Below, piece by piece: positions 10,024 to 43,163 of a stretch of 48,498 nt of DNA (its first letter is position 1; each line of letters opens with the position of its first letter). This DNA comes from Opitutales bacterium (GTDB lineage: Bacteria; Verrucomicrobiota; Verrucomicrobiia; Opitutales; JABSRG01), in assembly GCA_049599475.1 (NCBI GenBank), contig JBMYOQ010000022.1, positions 1 through 48,498 of the forward strand, read 5' to 3'. Under the pieces are notes generated by a model. It was not told where the DNA came from, searched no databases, and saw only the letters and a program-made list of their open reading frames with translations. The position numbers and the translations under genes are program-made.

Positions 10024-10109
10024 AGCGACCATTCCTCGCTCGTCGCCGCCCGCTTGTCAAAACCTATGGCTGCTTGCAATCTGCGACGGCTCAGGCTTCT
10101 TTGTTGCCG

Positions 10110-10631
10110 ATGGGTATTTTCCGAAAGTCCAAGCTCCCCCCGATCCTCCTAGCCCTGATCGGGCTATTTGCCTTCACAGCCTGCGATCGCAGCGAGCTTG
10201 GCGAGGAGGCAGCGCGTGAACGCCTGCGCAAGGCTTTCACCGAGGCGAGCAATAATCGCGACATTCCAGCCATGCTCGACCTTTTCTGCTGGGATAACGT
10301 CGAAGACCGCTATCGCTCAATGATCGAAGTTGCTGTGCAGAACGAGATCCACTACCCGCTCAAAAAAATCACGTTTCACCCCATCAAGCCTGATGACTCC
10401 ATCGATTTCGATTTCCGAGGCACCCCCTACGTGGCCAATTTGGAGCCACGTCTACGTATGGGTGTCGAGTACACGACCGAGGATTTTTTCACGGTTTCCT
10501 ACCTCTTGGGCTTTCAGGACGGAGCCTACAAATTGATCAACGCTGCTCCCAAAAGTGTCGTTAGGCCCACCGTTTCCGCTCAAATTCCGGAAAATCCCGT
10601 CGAAATTACCCCCGAACCGCCTAGCCAGTAA
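10110..10631 (+). CDS. Hypothetical lipoprotein (start trimmed to ATG 10110)
   Basis: Basic N-terminus, hydrophobic stretch, lipobox FTAC. Confidence 0.7.
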   Translation: MGIFRKSKLPPILLALIGLFAFTACDRSELGEEAARERLRKAFTEASNNRDIPAMLDLFCWDNVEDRYRSMIEVAVQNEIHYPLKKITFHPIKPDDSIDFDFRGTPYVANLEPRLRMGVEYTTEDFFTVSYLLGFQDGAYKLINAAPKSVVRPTVSAQIPENPVEITPEPPSQ

Positions 10632-10730: not shown

Positions 10731-11066
10731 ATGAAAATCAAAGCATACCTGAAGCCGACTTGTGGTTGGAGCATGGGCGTCCGCGCTATCTTCGACAAAT
10801 ATAAGCTCGAATACACAGACTTGGATATCATCAATAACCGCGACCTCTACGCCGAAATGGTGGAGAAGACCGGCCAGCCGCTGTCTCCGTGTGTTGAGAT
10901 TGACGGTGTCATGCTCGCTGATGTCTCAGGCGAAGAGGTAGAGAACTACATGCTCAGCAATGGACTCATCCAGCCAAACGACACCAAACCGTTTGCTCCG
11001 ACGAATACCAATTGCAAAGGGGAAACAGCCGCCGAGATCGAAGAGAAAACGGTCCGCTTCCTCTAA
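10731..11066 (+). CDS. Glutaredoxin-like protein (CGWS, CxxS type)
   Basis: YLKPTCGWS active site, TGQPLSPCVEIDG cis-Pro region. Confidence 0.88.
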   Translation: MKIKAYLKPTCGWSMGVRAIFDKYKLEYTDLDIINNRDLYAEMVEKTGQPLSPCVEIDGVMLADVSGEEVENYMLSNGLIQPNDTKPFAPTNTNCKGETAAEIEEKTVRFL

Positions 11067-11229: not shown

Positions 11230-14200
11230 ATGGATTTCACTAAGCAAAATACTTCCGAACACACAGACCTCCCTTTCCACCAGCTCTACGATCGCGAGCT
11301 GGACTACGATAGCTGTGGCGTCGGCTTCATCACACGCAAAGACGGGCAGCAGACTCACGACCTCATGCTTAAGGGGCACGAGTCTCTCTGCGTAATTCCT
11401 CACCGGGGTGGCATGAGTTCCGAAGGCATCGGCGACGGCGCAGGTATCAACATGGATATCTCCCGCAAGTTCTTCGCGAAGGTCGTCGGCAAGGAATCCC
11501 TTGAAGAAGGCGAATTCGGCGTGGCCAATTTCTTTTTTCCGCTCAAGGAGGAGAAACACGATTTCACGCGCCAGCTCATCGAGGACAAGTGCGAAGAATT
11601 CAAGCTCCCCTTGCTACAATGGCGCGACGTCCCAGTAGATAATACTGTTCTCAACGAAGAGTCAGCTGCAGCTCAACAACTCATCCGCCAGCTCGTATTT
11701 GGCAGACCAGAATCCTTAAAAGACGCTTCGCAAGCTGAATTTGATCAGCTTATCAACGACACTCTAATCGCGATCGAGGCCGTCGCCTACAGCGAAGAGG
11801 GGATGGAAGGCTTCTACCCGCTTTCCATGAGCTCACGCACCATGGTTTACAAAGGGCGCCTCAACTCTGGAGAAGTCGTTCCCTATTTCTTGGATCTGAC
11901 CGACCCAGATCATGAGATCAGCATTTTCATGTTCCACACGCGGTTCTCGACGAATACCGAGCCCGCCACCTTCATGGCTCAGCCTTTCCGCTGGATGGCC
12001 CACAACGGTGAGCTGAATACGGACAAGAAGAATCGCTTGAGTGAGGACGCGATCGCGAAGCAAAAGAACAAGCGCGTCATTTTCCCGAAGGGTCAATCCG
12101 ACTCCGCGCGCCTCGACCAAACACTCGCCCGCCGCATCATCGAAGATAAGTTGGACATCGTAACAGCCGTCCGTGCGATGATGCCTCCTGCCTGGGAAAA
12201 CGACCCGACCCTCGACCCTAAGGTCCAGGCGATGTTCGAGTATTTCAGCCTCTATGAGGAGAAAAACGACGGTCCCGCAGCACTCGTATTTAGTGATGGA
12301 AACATCGTAGGTGCCGCGCTCGACCGCATGGGCCTCCGCCCTCTCCGCACAGTCGAGACCCATGAATACCTTGCTGTAACGTCCGAGGCTGGACAGATCG
12401 AATTCGACCCTCAAAACGTCATTCGACGTGGCCGCATCGAATCGGGCGGTATTCTGTATTTCGACCACGATCGCGGTCAGTGCTACATCACCGAACAGGT
12501 GGATGAGCAGCTCGCATCTAAGGACAACTATGCCGAACTCGTCGAAAAGCGCTCCGTAAAGCTCGAAGACCTCCCCGAGTATAAACTCGAAGATCTTGAT
12601 GAAGCTCACGAATTTTCCATCGAGCAGCGCCACGTCGCATACTCGATGAACCAAGAGAGCTTCCGTTTCCTTCTGGACCCCATGATCGTCACCGCCGGTG
12701 AAAAGATCAGCGCCATGGGTTATGGCCTCGCCAGCAACACCATGAACGCGTCCGAAGGTGGAATGGCTCGCTACTTCAGCCAGCGCTTCGCCCAGGTTAC
12801 GAATCCGCCTCTCGATTCCATTCGTGAGAAGGACGGCATGACCCTCCGTGTTTCGATCGGCGCAAAGCCCAATTTCTCCGAAGGCACCAGCAAGCAAATC
12901 GTGCTCAATACACCCGTGCTGCAGCGCCACCAGCTCGAGCAGATCCGTGCGCAAAAGATCACACCCGTCCACGAAGTTGAAATCCTATTCACTCCGAGCA
13001 AAGACGCCGCTGAAAACGAGGCCAACCTAGAAAATGCGGTCAATGCGATCTGCGCCCAGGTGAAGAAAATCGCCGCCGAGGAGCCAGGAATCATCATTCT
13101 GAGCGACAAGAAAATCGGCCTCAAGCAAGCCGCCATTCCAGCCATGCTCGCAATCGCGGCGACAAACCAAGCCCTCATCGAGAGCGGTTTGCGTTTCAAC
13201 GCAGCGATCATCATGGAGACGGGTCAAGCATCCAGCTCTCACCACGTCGCCTCTATCCTCGGATTCGGCGCGCATGCAATTTGCCCGCTAACCGTTCACA
13301 ACCGCATTATGACCCTCAATGGGGGCGAGCAGTTGGAGAAGGGTCTGAAGAATTTCGATAAGGCAATCGCCAAGTCTCTACTAAAGACCATGGGCAAGTT
13401 TGGCCTGTGCACCGCAGAGAGTTATATCGGCGGTGAGTTCTTCGAGTCGAACTACCTCGACACCACAGATGAGCGCCTATCGCACCACTTCCCGAACCTG
13501 AACTCTCCTGTCGGGGGTGCCGGATTCAGTGAGATCGCTGCGAGCGCTGCCGAGTGGCACTTCAAGGCCCTAAGCATCCACCAGGAAGCGGACATCCCAC
13601 ACCTCGGTCTGTTCAAGGAACGCCAAGACGGTGCGGGCCACACTTTCGGTCTCACCGCTGTTCAAGAATACAAGAACATGACCAGCGAGGAGATGCTCTA
13701 CGCAGCCGACGAAGAGATCGCCTACATTTTCGAGAAGCATGAACTCAACGGCGAGAAGAACGCTGAAGCACTCAAGGCAATGGTCGCGCTCTACTCGGAG
13801 ATCGCAGGCATGGTGGATCAGCACGAGGATGTCACCAAGACAATCGAGCAAACATTCGTTTACTACGGCCTAGATAAGAATCCAAAGGCCATGAGCGAGG
13901 TAAAGGCCGTGCTGACAAAGCGCGTAAAGCAGTCACAAGCTCAAGCGATCGACGATCTCTTTGAAGGCCAACACGACGAAGAGCCCGAGCAGATCAAGAA
14001 TGCTCTGAACGAGTTGGTAAATGGAGACAAGCATCCATCCGACCTCGCATACAAGCTCTTTGGCTACGGCAAGCGCACACCTGAGCAGATTGACCAGTTC
14101 AAGCTGACACGCGCCTACAAGAACTTCGTAAAGCGCATGGCCGAGAGCCGCGCAGAGCGCCCTGCTGCCCTGCGCGATATTCTCTATTTCCCTGCCGATA

Positions 14201-16983
14201 TCCGCCGCGCACAGACTGTTGAAGACTTCACGGAAATCCTCGGACAACAGAATATCCTGGGCAACGCGCACATCGCAGTCCAAGGCCTCGAAGTCACTCA
14301 AGAGGGCGATGCGTTCAAGGCAGTCCTTTCTGATAGCAACGTGCTCAAGCTCGCAAGCCTCCGCCAACACTGGCTGGACCGCTTCCCAGGAGCTGAAATC
14401 GAAGCCAAGGATGACCATCTACTCATTACTTCGGCTTCTCCGCTCATGGAGAATTACCTGGGCAAGCTCTGCCCAGCGCCTAAGCCGCTCGACCTCAAAG
14501 AAATTCAACCAGCTCACGAGATCACACCTCGCCTCACCGCAGGCGCGATGAGTCACGGTGCGCTGGTCGGAGTCGTCCACGAAGCAGTATCCCAAGGGGC
14601 CAATATCGCAGGCGCCCTGAGTAATTCAGGAGAAGGTGGAGAAAAGTCTTACCGCTACAACACGATCAAGAGTAGCTCGATCAAGCAGATCGCATCGGGC
14701 CGCTTCGGTGTCTGGGCTGGCTACTTCGCAGATCCAAATCTCCAAGAGATCGAGATCAAGATCGCTCAGGGTGCAAAGCCGGGTGAAGGCGGCCAGCTAC
14801 CGGGCCACAAGGTGAATCTCGAGATTGCCTCTTCGCGTGGTGGCACACCGCTTGTCGAGCTTGTCAGCCCACCCCCGCACCACGACACCTATTCGATCGA
14901 AGACCTGGCTCAGCTTATCCACGACGCTCACGCCGCTCGCGTGAAGGTGATCGTGAAGCTCGTGTCTTCCGAGGGCATTGGCACGATCGCAGTCGGCGTG
15001 GCCAAGGCAGGAGCCGACGTCATCAACGTAGCAGGCTCCACCGGAGGCACCGGTGCAGCGGCCGTTACCAGTTTAAAAAATACCGGGCGCTCGGCAGAGC
15101 TCGGTATTGCAGAAGTCCACAAGGCACTGAGCCTCAACGGTATTCGCGACAAGGTCATCCTCCGCGCGAGTAACGCCCACCAGACCGGTTCAGACGTCGT
15201 AAAGTCTGCCATCATGGGCGCGGATTCTTTCGAATTCGGAACCACAGCTTTGATGATGCTCAAGTGCGTCATGGCGAAGAACTGTAATGTAAAATGCCCA
15301 GCGGGTCTTACCACGAACCCTGAGATGTTCGAAGGGGATGCGCGCGCACTTGCTCAATTCTTCCTAAATATCGCTCACGATGTGCGCCGCATTTTGGCTC
15401 GCCTCGGCTACAAGAGCCTCAAGGACATCCGCGGTAAATCACGTCTGCTCCATCTCATCGATCACGCTACAATTCACGGCAAGCTCGACTTCCGTGACTT
15501 CCTAGGAGAAGTCGAAGAGAAGGTCGTTGAAAACCCTATTTACGTCCAAGCGGAATACGCCAAGGACGACATCGTCTGGCCAAAGGTCCTCGAAGATATG
15601 ATGAAGGGGAATGCCGAGCAGCTTGTGTTTGAAGGGCCTGATTTCAAGCTGGAGAACCGCGACAAGACTATGGGCGGCCAACTCGCCATCGACATCGAGC
15701 GCTACCTCGCTCACCAGATGCCACCGGATGCCGAGATCCAGTCTCCTGCGATCAAGGTCGGCAAAAAGGGACGCAAGTTCTTGGCGGCAGACAGCGTTGT
15801 CATCAAAACCAGCAATTCCGCGGGACAGTCCTTCGGTTGCTGGATGAATGACGGGATGCTCCTCGAACACACCGGAACCTGTAACGACGGCGTCGGCAAG
15901 GGTGCTTGTGGTGGCGTCGCGGCGATCAAATCGCCAGGCGGCGGTAGCCTAAAGGCCGGCGAAAACGTCCTGATCGGAAACTTCGCGCTCTTTGGAGCCA
16001 GCGGAGGACAGCTTTATGTAAACGGTGAAGCGGGTGACCGTTTCGCAGTGCGGAATTCCGGTGCCCTCGCAGTCGTCGAAGGTGTCGGTGACTTCTGCTG
16101 CGAATACATGACCAGCGGTGCCGTGCTCAACCTCGGTAGCTTCGGCAAAGGCTTCTGCAACGGAATGTCTGGAGGCAACGCCTACCAGTACGATCCAAAC
16201 GACATGCTGAAGCACCGCTACAGTGCGGACTCCGTCATCATCCAGCCGCTCGACGCCGGCACCGACGAGGCACAAGCACACGAGGCGATCGCCAAGTCCA
16301 TGCTTGAGCACCACGTAAAACGCACTGGCTCCGTGCTCGCACAAAAGATTTTGGACAGCTGGAACTACGAGCGCCAGTTCTTCAAATACGCGACTCCTCG
16401 TGCACTCTATCGCACGCAGACCGTAGAAGGCATCCTCAAAGTCATGGATCCCAAAGCCATGGTCGAGGAGCTTGCGTTCGCAGTCGCCGAGTCCGAGCTC
16501 GATCTTCTCCTGACAGCCTATCAGCAAAAGCAGACCATTCTCGACGGCCGCGTCCCCAACTATGGTGAGTTCGATACGCCAGATATGTTTAAGCTGCTCA
16601 ACAGCTACTCACACCTGGCCAAAGCCACTGAAATGGCACGCGACAATGCCAAGAAGCGCGGTCTCGAAGAGACTGGACGCCACATTGACGCCTTTGTCCG
16701 CAATTTGATCGAGACCAAGGACCGCAAGCTCCTTGAAACGATTGCCAAGGACACACGTGCTGCACTATCAGGCTTCTCACCCGAAGAATTGGCGTCGAAA
16801 CTCGCTCAAAAGCGAATCAACGACTACAAAACATCCATGGTCGAACGAGATATCCAAGATAACAACTCCCTCGGCTCTTCCGCGTGGATCCTCAAACAAG
16901 AGCGCACAAATATTGAAGCCAAGGACCACAGACTGAAATTCGACGAAGCTTTTGCAGGAAAAATCCTACAAAAATTTTCGTAA
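11230..16983 (+). CDS. gltB: Atypical large glutamate synthase alpha subunit (1917 aa)
   Basis: N-terminal nucleophile CGVGFI, GDGAGI, RFSTNT, HNGELNT, FAQVTNPPLD, NSGEGGE, KQIASGRFGV, EIKIAQGAKPGEGGQLPGHKV, SPPPHHD, three-Cys cluster, GXGXG beta-helix (AGDRFAVRNSG, CEYMTSG). Confidence 0.95.
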   Translation: MDFTKQNTSEHTDLPFHQLYDRELDYDSCGVGFITRKDGQQTHDLMLKGHESLCVIPHRGGMSSEGIGDGAGINMDISRKFFAKVVGKESLEEGEFGVANFFFPLKEEKHDFTRQLIEDKCEEFKLPLLQWRDVPVDNTVLNEESAAAQQLIRQLVFGRPESLKDASQAEFDQLINDTLIAIEAVAYSEEGMEGFYPLSMSSRTMVYKGRLNSGEVVPYFLDLTDPDHEISIFMFHTRFSTNTEPATFMAQPFRWMAHNGELNTDKKNRLSEDAIAKQKNKRVIFPKGQSDSARLDQTLARRIIEDKLDIVTAVRAMMPPAWENDPTLDPKVQAMFEYFSLYEEKNDGPAALVFSDGNIVGAALDRMGLRPLRTVETHEYLAVTSEAGQIEFDPQNVIRRGRIESGGILYFDHDRGQCYITEQVDEQLASKDNYAELVEKRSVKLEDLPEYKLEDLDEAHEFSIEQRHVAYSMNQESFRFLLDPMIVTAGEKISAMGYGLASNTMNASEGGMARYFSQRFAQVTNPPLDSIREKDGMTLRVSIGAKPNFSEGTSKQIVLNTPVLQRHQLEQIRAQKITPVHEVEILFTPSKDAAENEANLENAVNAICAQVKKIAAEEPGIIILSDKKIGLKQAAIPAMLAIAATNQALIESGLRFNAAIIMETGQASSSHHVASILGFGAHAICPLTVHNRIMTLNGGEQLEKGLKNFDKAIAKSLLKTMGKFGLCTAESYIGGEFFESNYLDTTDERLSHHFPNLNSPVGGAGFSEIAASAAEWHFKALSIHQEADIPHLGLFKERQDGAGHTFGLTAVQEYKNMTSEEMLYAADEEIAYIFEKHELNGEKNAEALKAMVALYSEIAGMVDQHEDVTKTIEQTFVYYGLDKNPKAMSEVKAVLTKRVKQSQAQAIDDLFEGQHDEEPEQIKNALNELVNGDKHPSDLAYKLFGYGKRTPEQIDQFKLTRAYKNFVKRMAESRAERPAALRDILYFPADIRRAQTVEDFTEILGQQNILGNAHIAVQGLEVTQEGDAFKAVLSDSNVLKLASLRQHWLDRFPGAEIEAKDDHLLITSASPLMENYLGKLCPAPKPLDLKEIQPAHEITPRLTAGAMSHGALVGVVHEAVSQGANIAGALSNSGEGGEKSYRYNTIKSSSIKQIASGRFGVWAGYFADPNLQEIEIKIAQGAKPGEGGQLPGHKVNLEIASSRGGTPLVELVSPPPHHDTYSIEDLAQLIHDAHAARVKVIVKLVSSEGIGTIAVGVAKAGADVINVAGSTGGTGAAAVTSLKNTGRSAELGIAEVHKALSLNGIRDKVILRASNAHQTGSDVVKSAIMGADSFEFGTTALMMLKCVMAKNCNVKCPAGLTTNPEMFEGDARALAQFFLNIAHDVRRILARLGYKSLKDIRGKSRLLHLIDHATIHGKLDFRDFLGEVEEKVVENPIYVQAEYAKDDIVWPKVLEDMMKGNAEQLVFEGPDFKLENRDKTMGGQLAIDIERYLAHQMPPDAEIQSPAIKVGKKGRKFLAADSVVIKTSNSAGQSFGCWMNDGMLLEHTGTCNDGVGKGACGGVAAIKSPGGGSLKAGENVLIGNFALFGASGGQLYVNGEAGDRFAVRNSGALAVVEGVGDFCCEYMTSGAVLNLGSFGKGFCNGMSGGNAYQYDPNDMLKHRYSADSVIIQPLDAGTDEAQAHEAIAKSMLEHHVKRTGSVLAQKILDSWNYERQFFKYATPRALYRTQTVEGILKVMDPKAMVEELAFAVAESELDLLLTAYQQKQTILDGRVPNYGEFDTPDMFKLLNSYSHLAKATEMARDNAKKRGLEETGRHIDAFVRNLIETKDRKLLETIAKDTRAALSGFSPEELASKLAQKRINDYKTSMVERDIQDNNSLGSSAWILKQERTNIEAKDHRLKFDEAFAGKILQKFS

Positions 16984-16992
16984 TCCCTGATT

Positions 16993-17046
16993 GATCTGAA
17001 CGATTTCGCACTTAGAACGTTCGTCTTCGCGCGAATCGTTCCGATC
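16993..17046 (+). other. Intercistronic stem-loop between gltB and the diflavin reductase gene
   Basis: GATCTGAACGATTTCGC (16993-17009) / GCGAATCGTTCCGATC (17031-17046); no U-tract. Confidence 0.55.
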
Positions 17047-17063
17047 CAGATTTAGCTTATTCG

Positions 17064-18830
17064 ATGAATTTTCCTTACATTCCAGAAGATGCACCTTTCA
17101 ACGAAGGCCAACGCCAATGGCTAGGAGGCTTCTTCGCCGGCATGAACTCACGTCTGTTGAGTGCTGGGAAGGATGACTCTGCATCTGGAGCCAGTGGAGC
17201 CAAACCACTCACCATCCTTTATGGCACACAAACGGGTAATGCCGAAGGTCTTGCCCAAGAAGCCGCTGAAAGTGCTGCTGGATTTGGCATGCAAGCCCAA
17301 GTATTCGGCATGGACGAGATCGAAGCCGAAGCCCTTCCAGGCCTCGAGCGCCTACTGATCGTCACCAGTACCTATGGCGACGGTGAAATGCCCGACAATG
17401 CCATCGCCCTTTGGGAAGCCGTTCAGGAAGAAGGCATGAGCCGTATGGAAGACACCCATTACGCGATCCTCGCGCTGGGAGACACAAGCTATGACCTTTT
17501 CTGCCAAGCCGGTAAGGATTGGGAAAAACGCCTGGACGATCTCGGTGCCAAAAAGCTTTTGGACCGTGTCGATTGCGATCTCGAGTTCGAAGAACCCTTC
17601 GCTCAGTGGCTCGAAGAAGTCATGCCAGAGGTCGCCAAGATTGGCGGCACCGGGGGCGCGGTCGCTGCTCCGGCGCAAGGCGGTGCGAAGCTTCCACCCA
17701 AGTCTAAGTGGACCAAGAAAAATCCTTTCCCAGCCAAGCTCACCAAGAACCTCACCCTCACAGATCCAGAGTCTTCCAAGGAGACACGCCACTATGAGAT
17801 CTCACTGGAAGGTTCAGATATTACTTACGAAGTTGGGGACGCCTTGGGCGTTATCCCAACAAACTGCCCAGAATTGGTCGACGCGATCATCTCGGCTCTC
17901 GGTGTAGATCCACGTGCTCAGGTTGTAGCTACGGACGATGAGAAGAAGCCCCTGGCGGATGCCCTGTTCTCTGATTTTGAGATCAAACTCCCGAGCAAAG
18001 AGCTTCTCGCGGCGATCGCTGAACGCTCTGCTGATGCTGAGCTGAACAAGCTTCTCGAGCCCGCAAATAAGAGTGCGTTGAACGACTTTCTCTGGGGTCG
18101 CGACACGATCGATCTTCTGCTTGAATATCCAACTGCGACCTTCACGGCTGAAGAATTTGTTGCGCTGCTCAAGCGCATCCAGCCACGCCTCTACTCGATC
18201 TCTTCAAGTATCGCGAAGCATCCCGGCGAGGTTCACCTCACAGTCGCGAGCGTGCGCTACGAATCACAGGGTAACGGCAAGAAAGGGGTGTGCTCCACTT
18301 TCCTAGCAGATCGCGTTTCGCAAGAGACCGATGTCCTCTGCTACCCAGCTCCAAATAAGAACTTTGGGGTGCCTGCAGATGAGAATGCTCCCATGATCAT
18401 GGTCGGGCCTGGTACCGGAGTTGCGCCATTCCGCGCCTTCCTGGAAGAGCGCGATATTCGCAAGTCTCCAGGTAAAAACTGGCTCTTCTTCGGCGAGCGC
18501 AATAAGGCTAAAGACTTCTTCTACGAGGACGAACTCTCAGACCTCCAAGAGCGCGGCGTGTTGACGAAGCTCGATCTCGCTTTCTCGCGCGACCAAGAGG
18601 AAAAGATCTACGTCCAAGATCGCATGCGTCAAAGCGGTAAGGAGCTTTACCAGTGGCTCGAAGAAGGCGGTTACTTCTTCGTCTGTGGTGACGCCTACCG
18701 CATGGCCAAGGATGTCGACAAGGCGCTTCACGATATTATCGCTGAGCACGGCGGTAAATCTGAAGAAGAAGCGAAGAAGTACGTCCAAGAGCTCTCGAAA
18801 GCTAAGCGCTACGTCCGAGACGTCTACTAA
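17064..18830 (+). CDS. CysJ-like NADPH-dependent diflavin (FMN/FAD) reductase
   Basis: Flavodoxin domain (YGTQTGNAE, TSTYGDGE, LALGDTSY.LFC), FAD domain (PRLYSISSS, GVCSTFL), NADPH domain (MVGPGTGVAPFR, AFSRDQ..KIYVQ, VCGDA..MAKDV, RYVRDVY). Confidence 0.93.
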   Translation: MNFPYIPEDAPFNEGQRQWLGGFFAGMNSRLLSAGKDDSASGASGAKPLTILYGTQTGNAEGLAQEAAESAAGFGMQAQVFGMDEIEAEALPGLERLLIVTSTYGDGEMPDNAIALWEAVQEEGMSRMEDTHYAILALGDTSYDLFCQAGKDWEKRLDDLGAKKLLDRVDCDLEFEEPFAQWLEEVMPEVAKIGGTGGAVAAPAQGGAKLPPKSKWTKKNPFPAKLTKNLTLTDPESSKETRHYEISLEGSDITYEVGDALGVIPTNCPELVDAIISALGVDPRAQVVATDDEKKPLADALFSDFEIKLPSKELLAAIAERSADAELNKLLEPANKSALNDFLWGRDTIDLLLEYPTATFTAEEFVALLKRIQPRLYSISSSIAKHPGEVHLTVASVRYESQGNGKKGVCSTFLADRVSQETDVLCYPAPNKNFGVPADENAPMIMVGPGTGVAPFRAFLEERDIRKSPGKNWLFFGERNKAKDFFYEDELSDLQERGVLTKLDLAFSRDQEEKIYVQDRMRQSGKELYQWLEEGGYFFVCGDAYRMAKDVDKALHDIIAEHGGKSEEEAKKYVQELSKAKRYVRDVY

Positions 18831-18930
18831 TCCGGATCTTTCTGGCCACTTAGTTTGAAAATGGCCTCTCCGACTGTAGTCTAAAAGGTCTTGGACACAT
18901 TCCTAACCATCTTTAGATTAGTTTGCTAAA

Positions 18931-19542
18931 ATGGGATTTTTCCACCAAGCAGACGATGCATGCCCCTACCCCGAGAAACGAAAGTTGACCGAGGAAGAAG
19001 GGCTAGAACTCGCCGAGAGTATGATTCACGGCGGGGAGTCCACGGCGGGTACTGCCGCGAGCATTCTGATCACCTACCGTTGCGTCGAGCCGCTGATGCA
19101 GGTTTTACGTTCGAATTCTAAGAAGGCCGCACAACTCGCTGAAAATGGAATTTGGGAAATTTGGCACTCCGAAAAGGGCGATGCAGCCCGCAACCGCTTG
19201 GAGAACGGGATGCGCCACCTCTCCTGCAATCGGCATTGCGAGGCTATTCAAATTTTCCAAGAACTGATGCACGCTTACCCTGACTGGATCGAGCCACGCT
19301 TCAAGGCGGCCACTGTATTGTTTTTCAAAGAACGCCTCAGCGACTGTGTCGAGCTCTGTAAGACCATAGTCGACAAAGCACCTCAGCACTTTGGAGCCTG
19401 GCATACGATCGCGATGTGTGCCCTGCAGCTCGGCGAATGCTGTGCCGCTCGCGTAGCCATTGAAAAGGTGCTCGAGCTGAACCCGCATTCCCAGTCAAAC
19501 CGAGAGTTGATCGAATACTTGAAGCAAATCGAAAATTGCTGA
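18931..19542 (+). CDS. TPR-repeat protein, Cys-rich
   Basis: TPR patterns (YPDWIEP, APQHFGAW, VLELNPH); 10 Cys in 203 aa. Confidence 0.8.
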   Translation: MGFFHQADDACPYPEKRKLTEEEGLELAESMIHGGESTAGTAASILITYRCVEPLMQVLRSNSKKAAQLAENGIWEIWHSEKGDAARNRLENGMRHLSCNRHCEAIQIFQELMHAYPDWIEPRFKAATVLFFKERLSDCVELCKTIVDKAPQHFGAWHTIAMCALQLGECCAARVAIEKVLELNPHSQSNRELIEYLKQIENC

Positions 19543-25699: not shown

Positions 25700-26782
25700 T
25701 CACACTCCGCGCAACTCACTCAGAAACGGGCTTAAGGTTTTCTCCGATTCGACAAATTTCAGCTCTTCCCCGACCAATGTGATGCTCAGCGTGAGAATTT
25801 CCCCCATGTTTAAGCAGGACATAAAGCGACGTTCTGCATAGTGCTCGGCAAGGGCTGACCGCAATTCGTACACTTTTTCCTCGGGACTGATCATTGTCGT
25901 CCGCATGGATGCGAGTAAATCATTCAAGCGATCGGGATTCTGATCGATCCGGCGTTGTAGCATCGCGAGTTCCTCGATGCGGTATTGCTTCGCAGTGGTC
26001 GTATTAATCCGCTGCATACAGTAGTCCACCAGGGGATAATTCTCTTTAAAAAACTGCGGGAGATAGAATTTCTTGATTCCACTATAACTTTGCTGGTCAA
26101 AATCCATCGCCCGAATGCGCACTTGCGACTCCTCAATATCGGGGGTCACATTGACCACAAAGTTGTAAGAGCGCATGTCTCCTAAAAGCTGGATAAAGCA
26201 ACGCGCGTTAAACTTAACCAACTCTTTTGCCAAGCGAACGCCGTTAATATGGGGCCCATCGAGCCAATCTCGGATAAAAACATCGCCAGGCACGCCGACT
26301 ATGTGCTCCTCGATTAAAGTCTCCTTAGCTACTAGATAGTGAATCCTGTAGGGCGACAAAAGGTGCTCAATCTCCAACCCATAGACGCGCGACGCATCCG
26401 CCTTCTTAACATAATAGTAGTCCTGGTTGTCGTTGTGAGAATTTACAATTCGGATCCGGAAAGGCTGGGAATTTCCAAAAGTGCAGAAATCTATCCGATC
26501 CACATAGAGGTGAGACATCCACTTCGAAGCGCGGCCTGCTTTCAAGACCGAGTAAATTCGACACAAGTCTGCATGTAATTTGGGCTGCTCATCAGGACGG
26601 TAAGCCACAGATTGCCAAAGCGTATCCACCCCATTTTCGTCGAGCAGAGGTGCCGCGACATGGAAACCCATTAAGCGCTCATAAGTCACCGAGCCATCCA
26701 AGGCTCTACCGTAATTATGCAGATAAGCTTTGAGCAGATCGTCTAAGGGATAGACGGGCTTTTTTCGCGTGTTGATATCCAT
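25700..26782 (-). CDS. Conserved hypothetical protein with atypical (PI3K/HipA-like) kinase motifs
   Basis: 360-aa ORF; FGNSQPF, YYVKK, LLGDMRSYNF, AMDFD. The ORF is confident; the kinase call is inferred. Confidence 0.75.
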   Translation of the reverse strand: MDINTRKKPVYPLDDLLKAYLHNYGRALDGSVTYERLMGFHVAAPLLDENGVDTLWQSVAYRPDEQPKLHADLCRIYSVLKAGRASKWMSHLYVDRIDFCTFGNSQPFRIRIVNSHNDNQDYYYVKKADASRVYGLEIEHLLSPYRIHYLVAKETLIEEHIVGVPGDVFIRDWLDGPHINGVRLAKELVKFNARCFIQLLGDMRSYNFVVNVTPDIEESQVRIRAMDFDQQSYSGIKKFYLPQFFKENYPLVDYCMQRINTTTAKQYRIEELAMLQRRIDQNPDRLNDLLASMRTTMISPEEKVYELRSALAEHYAERRFMSCLNMGEILTLSITLVGEELKFVESEKTLSPFLSELRGV

Positions 26783-26835
26783 GAAATAGCCGATTGAGAC
26801 CGCTATCTCATACCAACGGAAGCCCTGGGCTCAAC

Positions 26836-27042
26836 TTAATTTGCACACGGCATCATAACACTCTTACCAGCGGATTCGCTACGCTTACACATAGTCTCGG
26901 GATTCTTCTCACAGGCAGCATCTTCAGGTTCAGGCACCGGCAGATGATCCGGACTCAACACAAGAGATCCAACTGGGCTCCAAGGGCCAATCGCGCCGAG
27001 ACTCGAAACGGCGTTTCCACGAATGATTTCTGACCATTTCAT
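26836..27042 (-). CDS. Putative 68-aa small protein coupled to the PNPOx-like gene
   Basis: ATG overlaps the upstream TGA (ATGA) and GGAGGT lies 6 nt before it; translates MKWSEIIRG...VMMPCAN. Confidence 0.45.
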   Translation of the reverse strand: MKWSEIIRGNAVSSLGAIGPWSPVGSLVLSPDHLPVPEPEDAACEKNPETMCKRSESAGKSVMMPCAN

Positions 27043-27644
27043 CGCGACACCTCCGCAGCTGAGTTTTCTGCCAATGTATTGATTTGCTTGAGCAAACCAG
27101 GATTGGCCAGAAGTTCGTCCACCGTGAACCGAGGGAATATGTGCTGGGGGCAATTCCAATCGTAGGCTTTGATCTCGAACTGGTAGATACGCTCGACGCG
27201 CGCCCGGTAATCCTTCGAGCTCAATGTTTCCACAAGCGCAGGCTCTTCTTCCGCGAAACTCACTTTGGCTTCCGCCCAAATCTTGACGCGCTGCCGAGTA
27301 GGATAATCCATCAAGATCATGGCGACTTTTCCGGTGTCCATAATGTTTCCGCTGCTGATGTGCTGGCGATTTCCCCGGAAATCTGCGAATCCAATGGTGC
27401 TTGGACCCAATGCTTTTAAGAAGCCTTTGGGCCCTCCCCTGTATTGCACGTAGGGCCATCCATTGGGCCCCACGGTCGACAAGTAAAAGTGATCCCGACT
27501 CTCGATGAACTCGACCTCCTGAGGAGTCAGGACATATCGATCTCCAGAGTTCTCCATTAGACTGTAATTTCTCCGAGAACCATCGCGTTCCTGGAGCTGT
27601 TTTACGGTTTCGCTGAATGTGTATTGTGTGAAGTTTTGATTCAT
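27039..27644 (-). CDS. Pyridoxamine 5'-phosphate oxidase-like FMN-binding protein
   Basis: FYLSTV..GWPYVQYRGGPKGFL, FADFRGNRQ.IS.GN, DWNCPQHI. Confidence 0.9.
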   Translation of the reverse strand: MNQNFTQYTFSETVKQLQERDGSRRNYSLMENSGDRYVLTPQEVEFIESRDHFYLSTVGPNGWPYVQYRGGPKGFLKALGPSTIGFADFRGNRQHISSGNIMDTGKVAMILMDYPTRQRVKIWAEAKVSFAEEEPALVETLSSKDYRARVERIYQFEIKAYDWNCPQHIFPRFTVDELLANPGLLKQINTLAENSAAEVSR

Positions 27645-27666
27645 AATTTTTGTTTCTTAAAAATTT

Positions 27667-27680
27667 ACCGAACGTTCGGT
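27667..27680. promoter_or_regulatory. Perfect palindromic operator (probable TetR site)
   Basis: ACCGAACGTTCGGT, 22 nt upstream of the PNPOx-like start. Confidence 0.8.
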
Positions 27681-27697
27681 TTTTGATGTTCAAAATT

Positions 27698-32878: not shown

Positions 32879-33940
32879 ATGCAATACGTCCTCAAAACTC
32901 TTTTTACTCTCTGCACCGCATGTCTAGCACTTGCTGACACTCAGCCTATTCAGATCAATGAATCCTGGTTTACCACGGAGGCCGCGGCGGAAAACGTCGA
33001 CTCAATCGCCGTCTGGGACAACCGAGAGGGCGACGTGCCTTGGATGTTGGTTACGGCAAAGGCCAGTCACTGCCTACATGTTTACGACGCGAGCAATGGC
33101 CAATTCTTAAAGCGCGTCGGGGGCCAAGGCGCGTTTCCGGGGCAGCTAGATCGACCCAATGGGCTCTTCGTCATCAATGACCTACTCTTGGTCGTGGAGC
33201 GTGATAATCAGCGTGTGCAAGTCTTCAAACTCCCAGAATTCGAGCCACTCACTTCATTTGGCCAAGATGTATTGATAAAACCATACGGGCTTTGGGTACA
33301 ACAATTACCCTCAGACCCTGAAGAGCCCAATGCGGAGCTGTATCAGGTATTCGTAACAGACAATTACGAATTCGCTGAAGGCGCTCGCACGGCTGATGGG
33401 GAGATTCCGCCAGCCACAGAACTGGGCGACCGAATCCGTGTGTTTACCTTAGAGCGCGAAGCGGGCACAGCCGAAGGCGAACTTGATTTTAGCTTCGGCG
33501 ATACATCGGGCCCAGGCATGCTCCGTATAGTAGAATCCATTTATGGCGACCCCTCTCACGACCATCTGATTATCAGCGAGGAAGATCCTATCGAAGGCTC
33601 CAGCCTAAAAATTTATACACTCAAAGGAAAATTCACCGGAGAACGAATTGGCCAAGATGTATTCAAGTTCCAATCTGAGGGAATAGTCTTAGATACCAAG
33701 AACAATTGGGTCATCGCAACCGACCAGGGCAAACAGGCTAATTATTTTCATGCCTTCGATCGGGAGATTTTTAAGTATATAGCGTCATTCTCTGGCAACT
33801 ACACTTTAAACACAGATGGGGCCTGCTTATTCCCCCAGGCAATAGGGCCGTATGCGGGCGGACTTTTCTTCGCGATCAACAACGATAAGCAAGTCGCTGC
33901 CTTTGATTGGGATGTGGTTTCGTTGAAGATCAAAGAGTAG
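32879..33940 (+). CDS. Secreted beta-propeller phytase-like protein
   Basis: Signal peptide; NVDSIAVW, TAKA..LHVYD, RPNG, ESIYGD, QSEGI, ATDQG, NTDG, INND motifs. Confidence 0.72.
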   Translation: MQYVLKTLFTLCTACLALADTQPIQINESWFTTEAAAENVDSIAVWDNREGDVPWMLVTAKASHCLHVYDASNGQFLKRVGGQGAFPGQLDRPNGLFVINDLLLVVERDNQRVQVFKLPEFEPLTSFGQDVLIKPYGLWVQQLPSDPEEPNAELYQVFVTDNYEFAEGARTADGEIPPATELGDRIRVFTLEREAGTAEGELDFSFGDTSGPGMLRIVESIYGDPSHDHLIISEEDPIEGSSLKIYTLKGKFTGERIGQDVFKFQSEGIVLDTKNNWVIATDQGKQANYFHAFDREIFKYIASFSGNYTLNTDGACLFPQAIGPYAGGLFFAINNDKQVAAFDWDVVSLKIKE

Positions 33941-41222: not shown

Positions 41223-43163
41223 ATGCCCAGTCCCATTAGATTCGCCTCTCTTTTTTCACTTTGCGCTTTAGCGCCGTGTTTGCTACTCGGGCAAAAACCA
41301 GGCCTCGAGCCAGAACGCTTGTTGAAGCCCAAGATGGTAAGTAACGTCTCGATGGCGCCCGATGGAAAACACATTTCCTACACCGCCGATATCGAGAATG
41401 AAAAACACATCATAATTTTAGATGAGGAGCTGAAGCCTTTTAAACTATCGGCTGGTTTCCAAAAAGAATTGGAACGATCCATTTGGGTCAATGACCACAT
41501 TCTCTACATCAATGTCGCAGCGCTTAAGCGAAGCAGTTTCTCAAATCGGCGGGCAAACGCCTTTATGCGATATGATTTGAACACCCCCAAGAAAGGACTC
41601 AAGGAAATCCTGAGCAGCGAGTTTAGCTACGGTGGTTATGTGATTCCTATTCCGGACGCTAACAAAACAGCTCTGATTTCGCGCCCCTATTACAACCTAA
41701 AGTGGTATGACAGTGTACCGTTCGTCATTGATGCGGACTCAACCAAGACACGGCGTCCTAACGTTGGGAGACCCGATAAGATGCAGTCTTGGGTATTTGA
41801 TAATACCGCTAGTCCAAGAATCGGATTGCCGAGATTCATCAACGAAGGTCAGGTATGGATTGAAGGAGAAGAAGGCTGGTCTATACAAGCATTCCCGAGG
41901 GAGGTTACACCGATCTGGTACAACTCTAAAACTTCGATCATTGCGATCGACAATAGCCCCTCGAACAGAAACCGAATCATCGAGTATGATTTCCAATCCA
42001 AGAAAACCTCAAAAATCATCCTCGAAGATGAGACACTGGATCTCGGAGCCCGTTCTCCATTCCATTTAACGGTCCAAACGTACAGCGATGTTTACTCGCC
42101 TAAAGATGGCACCGTCGTAGCAATATGGGCTCCTAATACTTACAATAATGGACAGGCGATCATTCACCCGAAATGGAGAAAGATAGCTAATTTTGTAAAA
42201 TCACAAACAAAGAGCGATTACATCGAAATAGTTTCTGTATCGAATGACGGAAACAAATCACTTTTCCGGACATCTGGCCCCACAGATCCAACGTCTTACT
42301 ACGTTCTAAACCTAAAGAATAAAACTCTAGACTACCTGATTTCCGAGCGAGAATGGCTTGTCGAAGATGCTCTCACCAAACCCAAGGATCTCGAAATTCC
42401 AGTCGCCGAAATTGGTCTCAATCTGCGAGGTAAATTCTACATAAATTCGGATTCAAGCCCTACGCTACTTTTAACAGATGTAAGCTGGTGGGGCATCTCG
42501 ACCCCAATCAGCCACGGATACTCTTCAAGAATTCAGTATTTTGTGAGCCAGGGTTACAATGTAGTCCAACTGTCACTGCCCGGGGCTATAGGGTATGGGA
42601 AAGCATACTATGATGGAGGAAAATTCGGTATTACCGGAGACCACATCGTTGCAATGAAAGCCGCAGGAAACTACCTAAAAGATCAGGAGCTTTCCAAAGG
42701 TGCTCCATTGATTCTTTATAGCAGTGGAACATCAAGTATTTCCGCAGCGAAACTCCTTGGAACTAGTGACCACTCGTTCGACGCGTGGATCTCAGGCGAT
42801 GCGCTTTACAGCTGGCCAGAACGCGAGACGAAAGGATATTACCGCCTCCGATGGGGCTCAAACTTGGGATACTTAGTCAAAGACTTGATAGGAGATCCTT
42901 ACATTGAGAATTCAAACTTTCACAAAACTCAGTGCTTAAATGAGCTCCCCGATGTAAACGTACCCACAGCGTTTTATGAGGACGAAGAGTATGAGGAACA
43001 CTTAAGTTCGGCAAAAGAAGGAATCCGCAAGGCTGCCATCCCATCCAAAATCAAATTATTTGAGACCGATACCAACGATTTTGAAACCGTCGAAGACACC
43101 AAGGCGTATTACGAAGAAATTGTGAGCCTCCTGAACTGGCTCGTTTCGCAGAGCAAATCCTAG
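41223..43163 (+). CDS. Secreted S9 (prolyl oligopeptidase) family homolog with degenerate catalytic motifs
   Basis: Signal peptide; SMAPDGKHISY propeller start; SGPTDPTSYY; QYFVSQGYNVVQLSLPGAIGYGKAYYDGG hydrolase-domain motif. Confidence 0.75.
   Translation: MPSPIRFASLFSLCALAPCLLLGQKPGLEPERLLKPKMVSNVSMAPDGKHISYTADIENEKHIIILDEELKPFKLSAGFQKELERSIWVNDHILYINVAALKRSSFSNRRANAFMRYDLNTPKKGLKEILSSEFSYGGYVIPIPDANKTALISRPYYNLKWYDSVPFVIDADSTKTRRPNVGRPDKMQSWVFDNTASPRIGLPRFINEGQVWIEGEEGWSIQAFPREVTPIWYNSKTSIIAIDNSPSNRNRIIEYDFQSKKTSKIILEDETLDLGARSPFHLTVQTYSDVYSPKDGTVVAIWAPNTYNNGQAIIHPKWRKIANFVKSQTKSDYIEIVSVSNDGNKSLFRTSGPTDPTSYYVLNLKNKTLDYLISEREWLVEDALTKPKDLEIPVAEIGLNLRGKFYINSDSSPTLLLTDVSWWGISTPISHGYSSRIQYFVSQGYNVVQLSLPGAIGYGKAYYDGGKFGITGDHIVAMKAAGNYLKDQELSKGAPLILYSSGTSSISAAKLLGTSDHSFDAWISGDALYSWPERETKGYYRLRWGSNLGYLVKDLIGDPYIENSNFHKTQCLNELPDVNVPTAFYEDEEYEEHLSSAKEGIRKAAIPSKIKLFETDTNDFETVEDTKAYYEEIVSLLNWLVSQSKS

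Follow-up and report, generated by a model that had tools for sequence, protein, structure and literature searches.

How is a bacterial glutamate synthase (GOGAT, here GltS) reduced when the gene for its large subunit, GltB, is followed not by gltD but by the gene for a diflavin reductase? This question is raised by a contig of 48,498 nucleotides from an Opitutales bacterium (JBMYOQ010000022.1), referred to here as the window. It represents contig C22 in a genome of 4.68 Mb, with a completeness of 96.6%, whose closest named kin are metagenome-assembled genomes (MAGs) of Verrucomicrobiota. According to reviews, bacterial glutamate synthases are fed either by GltD or by ferredoxin (PMC8097209, PMC5775586). 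An earlier note on the window had described a complete GltB gene followed, 80 nt downstream on the same strand, by a CysJ-type diflavin reductase gene, and coordinates and domain matches confirmed this arrangement; as the note had stated, no gltD, cysI, or nirA was found among the window open reading frames (ORFs) scanned (13 + 23 further). Our analysis indicates that the two genes very likely encode one NADPH-dependent glutamate synthase with a third bacterial type of donor, in which electrons would pass from NADPH via FAD and the FMN of a flavodoxin domain to the cluster and then the FMN of GltB. This reading is based on the lack of a detected gltD, the presence of other reductases for NirA and CysI, the conserved linkage, gene fusions, the complementary distribution with gltD in Methylococcales, the separate clades of both proteins, and an acidic residue (D/E) at the position of CysJ V500.

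Reductases and glutamate synthase genes of the source genome

A tblastn search of the genome retrieved a single gltB and, for diflavin reductases, three full-length matches. Apart from the window reductase, these are a protein encoded on contig C7, after nasA and nirA, and a member of the CysJ clade on contig C145. The cysI gene is located on C127, and the hemoprotein genes were placed on contigs other than the window. For both CysI and NirA, there is a paralog other than the window reductase. The possibility, raised in the earlier note, that the window reductase is the only CysJ of the genome was ruled out by the three paralogs and by the trees described below, in which it falls outside the CysJ clade.

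The search for a separate gltBD did not retrieve gltD from this genome: the best match to TIGR01317 had an E value of 1e-4, and tblastn with four GltD queries returned only fragments (23–43%). No match to Fer2 or Fer4_7, the two Pfam models with which ferredoxins were searched among the several ferredoxin families, was found genome-wide in a frame of less than 174 aa, and a flavodoxin-like match of 140 aa is present on C50. The genome also encodes glutamine synthetase and glutamate dehydrogenase, and the presence of the latter ruled out the idea that glutamate synthase is essential here.

Linkage of long gltB and the reductase across genomes

The neighborhood scoring proposed in the earlier note was carried out on the best 80 of 561 loci in GTDB species genomes, most of them from Methylococcales, and revealed that the linkage is conserved. 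The reductase was encoded at most 300 nt from the long gltB in 58 loci (57 on the same strand and one, L016, convergent) and at most 2 kb away, behind inserted genes, in another 4; 15 loci were truncated, and a NirA or CysI gene was found at none of the 80. In two Verrucomicrobiota genomes (L016:10707-12560 and L176:1210-2976), the reductase gene is inverted and convergent with gltB, and still adjacent to it.

The C-terminal domain that marks the long type was found in 4 of 401 genomes of the same phylum, including the source genome; in the other three, the reductase was adjacent, convergent, and fused, respectively. It was also present in 5 of 401 Pseudomonadota genomes (including the one chosen as center), with the reductase next to it in all five, and in nine plasmid records. 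The five plasmids examined, from Shinella, Ketogulonicigenium, Neorhizobium, Sinorhizobium, and Tsukamurella (Alphaproteobacteria and Actinomycetota), all carry gltB followed by the reductase. On the Ketogulonicigenium plasmid (L145:9659-18609), an AraC regulator gene and a cluster for siderophore uptake lie behind the cassette in the same orientation.

Among the 120 homologs listed, six were single-chain GltB-reductase fusions of 2428–2482 aa, two of which are from named species, Lentisphaera marina and L. profundi, on contigs larger than 2 Mb. Since the six fusions form one clade, they count as one event. In these proteins, the C-terminal helical domain of GltB runs directly into the N-terminal helix of the reductase. 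Furthermore, pairwise identities of GltB and reductase were correlated, with a rho of 0.91 for 50 pairs (a value that none of 2000 permutations reached) and of 0.60 for 12 diverse rows, which shows co-inheritance and not binding. The recurrence of the pairing across phyla and as fusions argues that it is not due to chance.

The reductase differs from CysJ

The best solved relative of the window reductase is Escherichia coli CysJ. The protein scored 629.5 bits with the cysJ model TIGR01931, below its cut-off of 668.15, and 495.9 with PRK06214 ("sulfite reductase subunit alpha"), above the cut-off of 432. In a tree of 64 reductases, from which 33 near-duplicate methanotroph rows had been excluded, one clade with an SH-aLRT support of 100 comprised 37 linked and 4 unlinked proteins together with the 6 fusions. 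When 12 molybdoenzyme fusions, a type that dominates the longer relatives of the reductase, were included, the gltB-linked clade (26 rows) and the CysJ clade were both supported with 100/98 and the nir-linked clade with 97/96, and 8 of the 12 molybdoenzyme diflavin modules formed a separate clade. The remaining four (P0215, P0217, P0252, and P0256), which are molybdopterin oxidoreductases, nest inside the gltB-linked clade, apart from the NasN-type fusions.

The residues that form the CysI pocket of CysJ (F496, V500, Q503, and V506) are largely replaced in the window reductase, which retains the phenylalanine and has D489, S492, and Q495 at the other positions. In the gltB-linked clade, 78 of 80 rows have D or E at the position of V500, and that of V506 is mostly Q. 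Among nir-linked rows, E was found at the V500 position in 5 of 6, as compared to L, T, S, or V in the 11 rows of the CysJ clade. The positions S508-R509, K514, and Y516, which we take to be specific for NADPH, are invariant. The exchange V500D in CysJ cuts CysI binding 300-fold (PMC11195156). Judged by score, clade, and pocket residues, the reductase is not a CysJ.

The earlier note had also reported a short N-terminal helix (QRQWLGGFFAG) resembling the oligomerization segment of CysJ. The helix is present and aligns with Y39/F40 of E. coli CysJ; as compared to the 52-residue octamerization segment, however, the reductase retains F23/F24 and not Q47, and it lacks the first helix. The helix belongs to the short type common to nir-linked reductases, and the resemblance holds for part of the segment. 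A profile of this helix gave no convincing copy in unfused long GltB, the matches being confined to the fusions and, weakly, to NirA. The NirA encoded at L008:9161-12662 (G000:C7) begins with a helix like that of the adjoining diflavin reductase (a weak profile match in a small set, E value of 8e-4), which suggests that NirA and its neighboring reductase may pair via matching helices. In addition, several Verrucomicrobiota genomes (L193, L194, L195, and L114) encode a related FAD/NADPH reductase of 380–395 aa that lacks the flavodoxin domain and may act on free flavodoxin.

The long GltB forms a separate clade

The window GltB has the domain order of glutamate synthase large subunits (GATase II, central, FMN, and GXGXG) and passed the NCBIfam model NF008730 with 1060.8 bits (cut-off of 1047). 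Residue C29 aligned with residue 1 of the solved enzymes 1llw and 2vdc, the glutaminase motifs (HRG, HxRFSTNT, HNGE, and SDS) and the synthase motifs are invariant in 50 sequences, and Met496 within the AMGYG motif was taken, by motif, to be the equivalent of Met479. The residues C1346, C1352, and C1356 aligned with the 3Fe-4S cluster cysteines of 7mfm, 1llw, and 2vdc.

The claim of a complete GltB thus stood as to the four domains, but the protein is not a plain copy of known enzymes. The cluster cysteines are spaced CX5CX3C in 85 of 85 long rows and in one truncated long row, as compared to CX5CX4C in 11 of 11 normal rows and in all solved enzymes. The DGG motif of GltS, presumably part of the FMN site, is absent, and SNAHQ stands in its place; S-x-A/S-x-Q occurs in 79 of 85 long rows, the pattern missing 6. 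The loop at residues 916–937 of Synechocystis 1llw, which we take to be the ferredoxin loop, has no counterpart in the window GltB, where a 12-residue loop was found. When compared with solved GltS, to which its identity is 37–39%, the protein is longer by about 230 residues in the stretch from the central to the FMN domain and by 190 at the C terminus. In a tree of 25 long and 11 normal rows, the two types were separated with a support of 100 (FastTree).

In an AlphaFold2 model of residues 721–1917 (pLDDT of 82 and pTM of 0.83; root mean square deviation [rmsd] of 3.7–6.5 from solved GltS), both extra regions were predicted to be ordered domains, and the C-terminal domain modeled alone was all-helical (pLDDT of 91). 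No Pfam family matched this domain at a useful score (59 members), and in structure searches the atlas matches were below 0.8 and the best of 48,161 chains had a Z score of 5.7 (rmsd of 4.6 over 87 aligned residues), which is not proof of a new fold. By its domains and score, the window GltB belongs to the family of GltS large subunits, from which it departs in two motifs; it is neither of the GltBD type nor, according to the loop test, of the ferredoxin-dependent type (Fd-GltS). In two MAGs, from a Vibrio sp. and a Methylococcaceae member, the long gltB is broken into two frames (L091:6980-12552 and L080:6962-12426), by decay or an assembly error.

Distribution with respect to gltD

Long GltB and gltD were scored in a set of 81 Methylococcales genomes centered on Methylomonas sp. 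TEB, using a gltD threshold of E 1e-100 and at most 16 candidates per genome. Long GltB was present in 19 genomes, none of which contained gltD, whereas the other 62 all contained gltD (50 above and 12 below the cut-off) and none contained long GltB; one of the 62 (G853) is unpublished, and without it the counts are 19 and 61. Among genomes picked from the 80 loci, gltD was found in 3 of 20 and in 1 of 5 further ones, and in the four genomes checked that have both gltD and the long type, gltD stands after a second, normal gltB. The long gltB is the only gltB in the source genome, Methylomonas sp. TEB, Methylotuvimicrobium sp. KM1, and four more genomes checked.

The only other genome of the genus carries the same cassette, and five other genera of the family encode a normal GltB of 1513–1526 aa. 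In four of these five relatives, the normal gltB stands behind the glutaredoxin and lipoprotein-like genes that also precede the window gltB, the contig of the fifth being too short. G012 has both systems, with the normal gltB-gltD at this position. The slot therefore holds three states in relatives. The reductases of four relatives searched were exclusively CysJ- or nir-type, or short forms without the flavodoxin domain. Among the loci with normal GltB and no gltD found (L177-L181, from G001-G004 and G006), a small 2Fe-2S ferredoxin frame was present in only two of the five genomes.

Proposed electron route and points against it

The long GltB would hydrolyze glutamine and deliver ammonia to 2-oxoglutarate, the imine being reduced with FMN as in other GltS, as its conserved domains and motifs suggest. 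In the reductase, a hydride would be transferred from NADPH to FAD and then, as single electrons, to the FMN of the flavodoxin domain. This domain would swing to the Fe-S cluster of GltB, as expected from the working mode of diflavin reductases and the genomic evidence, and the electrons would pass on to the FMN of GltB and 2-iminoglutarate. Judged by the position of the fusion junction, the reductase is probably held by two regions of GltB, the C-terminal helical domain and the linker insertion. Complex formation, the direction and route of the electrons, cofactor content, and activity are thus what we infer for this pair. Potentials of -280 mV for the cluster and -240 mV for the FMN of Azospirillum brasilense GltS, and of -400 to -450 mV for flavodoxin hydroquinone, are given in PMC8097209; judged by these values, measured in other proteins, the step from flavodoxin to the cluster would be plausible. 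The earlier proposal of a dedicated donor accordingly stands as far as the conserved linkage, the separate CysJ, the lack of a detected gltD, and the fusions are concerned, while the electron transfer steps themselves remain predictions.

Several observations weigh against this reading. No reductase was found within 6–7 kb at 3 of the 80 loci, and two of the incomplete loci (L015 and L040) have about 0.9 kb of reductase-free DNA downstream; a reductase of the same clade is encoded elsewhere in all three unlinked genomes and in the L015 genome. The pair does not always form one operon, as illustrated by the convergent L016 and L176. Four of the 12 molybdopterin-enzyme fusions nest in the gltB-linked reductase clade, which is therefore not exclusive to GltB partners. 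Given the changed cysteine loop and FMN-site motif, cofactor content or chemistry could differ in the long clade. Kin genomes are not independent in the count of 81, and a normal gltB or gltD stands beside the cassette at 6 of 80 loci (L039, L052, L060, L069, L075, and L085) and at L171 and L172; since some genomes carry both systems, exclusivity is not strict. Finally, gltD was found in none of the five family relatives with normal GltB (82–97% complete), in which GltB apparently operates without GltD or this reductase. This weakens, within the family, the argument that a lack of gltD implies this donor, so that the earlier phrase "instead of GltD" holds for the gene content of the source genome and is less telling as a reason.

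Alternative explanations

An indirect donor is an unlikely alternative. Long GltB would then be of the ferredoxin/flavodoxin type and fed by soluble carriers, and the linked reductase would keep these carriers reduced or be one of several donors. Such an arrangement would account for the gltD-less GltB of family relatives, the separate flavodoxin-like match on C50, and the convergent and unlinked gene pairs, whereas the single-chain fusions, the lack of a small ferredoxin frame in the genome (two Pfam models), the GltB without a counterpart of the Fd-GltS loop, and the clade-typical residues of the flavodoxin domain argue for direct transfer.

It appears more improbable still that the pair is a real redox couple and not a standard glutamate synthase, its altered cofactor sites reflecting another acceptor or cluster type. 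The spacing of the cluster cysteines, the S-x-A-H-Q-like motifs in place of DGG, the identity of 37–39% to solved GltS, and the retention of the long type beside normal gltBD in some genomes point in this direction; as the only gltB of seven genomes, with a distribution complementary to gltD in 81 of 81 and with invariant glutaminase and synthase motifs, the long GltB nevertheless has the features of a glutamate synthase. It is very improbable that the reductase serves as a flavoprotein of CysJ or NirA type for a hemoprotein encoded elsewhere, its neighborhood being a hitch-hiking accident: it exceeds the PRK06214 cut-off, and Methylomonas sp. TEB has a CysI-like gene and no diflavin reductase found other than the gltB-linked one, but the source genome has separate CysJ-clade and NirA-linked paralogs, the V500 position carries D or E, the Methylomonas CysI is of the type with DUF934 behind it, which we assume to be ferredoxin-fed, and the reductase is fused to GltB while hemoprotein genes are absent from all 80 loci.

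Features of the locus

The features of the locus are given in Table 1. In a scan for promoters and terminators, the number of sites did not exceed that in shuffled sequence, the GC profile showed no sharp step at the cassette, and no RNA holder was listed for window positions 14000–19500. The glutaredoxin-like gene has a CxxS-type CGWS motif and, in relatives, immediately precedes gltB, whether this is of the long or the normal type; a link of this conserved neighbor to cluster assembly or redox control is possible. Three window ORFs encoding 285–646 aa (32879–33940, 41223–43163, and 25700–27693) had no Pfam match at E 1e-5.

Table 1. Features of the gltB-reductase cassette and its upstream neighbors in the window
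Feature	Position	Strand	Remarks
Unassigned ORF, lipoprotein-like	10074..10631	+	Second slot marker; context
Glutaredoxin-like gene	10731..11066	+	Marker, in relatives, of the ancestral position of gltB; context, outside the cassette
Long-type gltB, 1917 aa	11230..16983	+	ORF with four GltB domains; sole glutamate synthase large-subunit gene in the genome
Class II glutamine amidotransferase domain, GATase_2, aa 29-436	11314..12537	+	Domain match; Cys29 aligned with Cys1 of solved GltS
Central domain, Glu_syn_central, aa 467-740	12628..13449	+	Invariant Met496 within AMGYG motif
Helical insertion, ~100-125 aa	13651..14034	+	Present in Verrucomicrobiota, Lentisphaera, and planctomycete members; absent from 1800-1840 aa forms
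Insertion common to the long clade, aa 938-1082	14041..14475	+	Lies in the linker from the central to the FMN domain; predicted to fold as an alpha/beta subdomain
FMN/synthase barrel, Glu_synthase, aa 1087-1394	14488..15411	+	No counterpart of Synechocystis loop 916-937; SNAHQ where DGG expected
Cluster cysteines C1346, C1352, C1356	15265..15297	+	Spacing CX5CX3C; canonical CX5CX4C
GXGXG beta-helix, aa 1513-1677	15766..16260	+	Domain match
All-helical C-terminal domain, aa 1724-1917	16399..16980	+	Specific to the clade; candidate docking domain
Intergenic spacer, 80 nt	16984..17063	.	No terminator-like site listed
Diflavin reductase, 588 aa	17064..18830	+	gltB-linked clade; FMN/FAD/NADPH domains
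Short N-terminal helix of reductase, aa 4-32	17073..17159	+	Retained in fusions; F23/F24 aligned with CysJ Y39/F40
Flavodoxin domain, Flavodoxin_1, aa 51-182	17214..17609	+	M109, W117, D144, A149, and W153 typical of the clade
FAD- and NADPH-binding domains, aa 217-552 (FAD_binding_1 217-413, NAD_binding_1 446-552)	17712..18719	+	D489 at the position of E. coli CysJ V500

Comparison with known systems

The pair shares with GltB-GltD (A. brasilense 1ea0/2vdc/6s6s; Bacillus subtilis 7mfm) the four-domain large subunit with the Cys1 nucleophile, three cluster cysteines, and synthase motifs, as well as the organization in two genes, with an NADPH/FAD partner that in certain lineages is part of a fusion protein (described for GltD in PMC8097209). 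It differs in that the partner is a flavodoxin-FNR diflavin protein, whereas GltD contains FAD and two 4Fe-4S clusters, and in the linker residues, C-terminal helical domain, CX5CX3C spacing, altered FMN-site motif, and separate clade of the long GltB. Like Fd-GltS (Synechocystis 1llw/1ofd), the pair lacks GltD, and a one-electron carrier is expected at the cluster; in contrast, the 916–937 loop has no counterpart, the hosts are non-photosynthetic, and the role of the carrier would fall to a flavodoxin domain within the same protein as its NADPH reductase.

E. coli CysJ (6efv, 9c91) has the same flavodoxin, FAD, and NADPH domains, and F23/F24 match Y39/F40 of its oligomerization segment as described in bioRxiv 10.64898/2026.04.08.717228; unlike CysJ, the reductase scores below the TIGR01931 cut-off, belongs to another clade, has V500, Q503, and V506 replaced and a shorter N-terminal segment, and is not encoded beside cysI. 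NasN, the diflavin assimilatory nitrate reductase of Mycobacterium smegmatis, uses, as proposed for the pair, a CysJ-like diflavin module for the transfer of NADPH electrons to a nitrogen-assimilation enzyme (PMC11162112), and is thus a precedent for such a donor, but its acceptor is a molybdoenzyme and it is always fused, as opposed to the separate genes here. By analogy, the pair may function as GltB-GltD does, with a donor resembling that of NasN or CysJ.

The literature search aimed at this pairing, which reached few subscription papers and no supplements, retrieved no description of it. Within the terms searched in two Methylomonas papers, gltB was named and gltD and cysJ were not, and further background was provided by PMC10704036, PMC5920175, PMC12871200, and 10.1101/2020.01.22.916338. 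A diflavin-fed glutamate synthase is thus apparently undescribed so far.

Iron sparing and implications

The earlier note had suggested iron sparing as the reason for this system. If GltB keeps its 3Fe-4S cluster, dropping the two 4Fe-4S clusters of GltD would save 8 of 11 iron atoms per protomer (arithmetic based on PMC8097209). The regions in front of 75 long and 11 normal gltB genes were scanned for Fur boxes, which were not enriched for the long type: the mean best match was 11.65, as compared to 11.55 for shuffled sequence, and 3 of 75 genes reached at least 14 of 19 positions. A sigma-54 scan of the same genes showed no pattern. One plasmid locus lies beside siderophore genes. The iron arithmetic holds, and iron sparing as the selective reason is doubtful.

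Taken together, these data probably define a third GOGAT donor class, in which a deep-branching long GltB, with a remodeled cluster loop and FMN site and an unclassified C-terminal helical domain, would be reduced directly by the flavodoxin domain of a dedicated NADPH diflavin reductase. This enzyme would be single-chain in Lentisphaera, move between phyla as a two-gene cassette, be able to displace GltD-type and GltD-less GltB, and represent the only GOGAT in about one-quarter of the sampled Methylococcales. If so, a core nitrogen-assimilation enzyme would have a third wiring, and the gene labeled "sulfite reductase subunit alpha" at these loci would have to be re-annotated. The single-chain enzyme of Lentisphaera makes the claim testable with one protein. 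Long GltB is the only GOGAT found in genomes of widely cultured methanotroph genera, and the finding therefore bears on models of their nitrogen metabolism.

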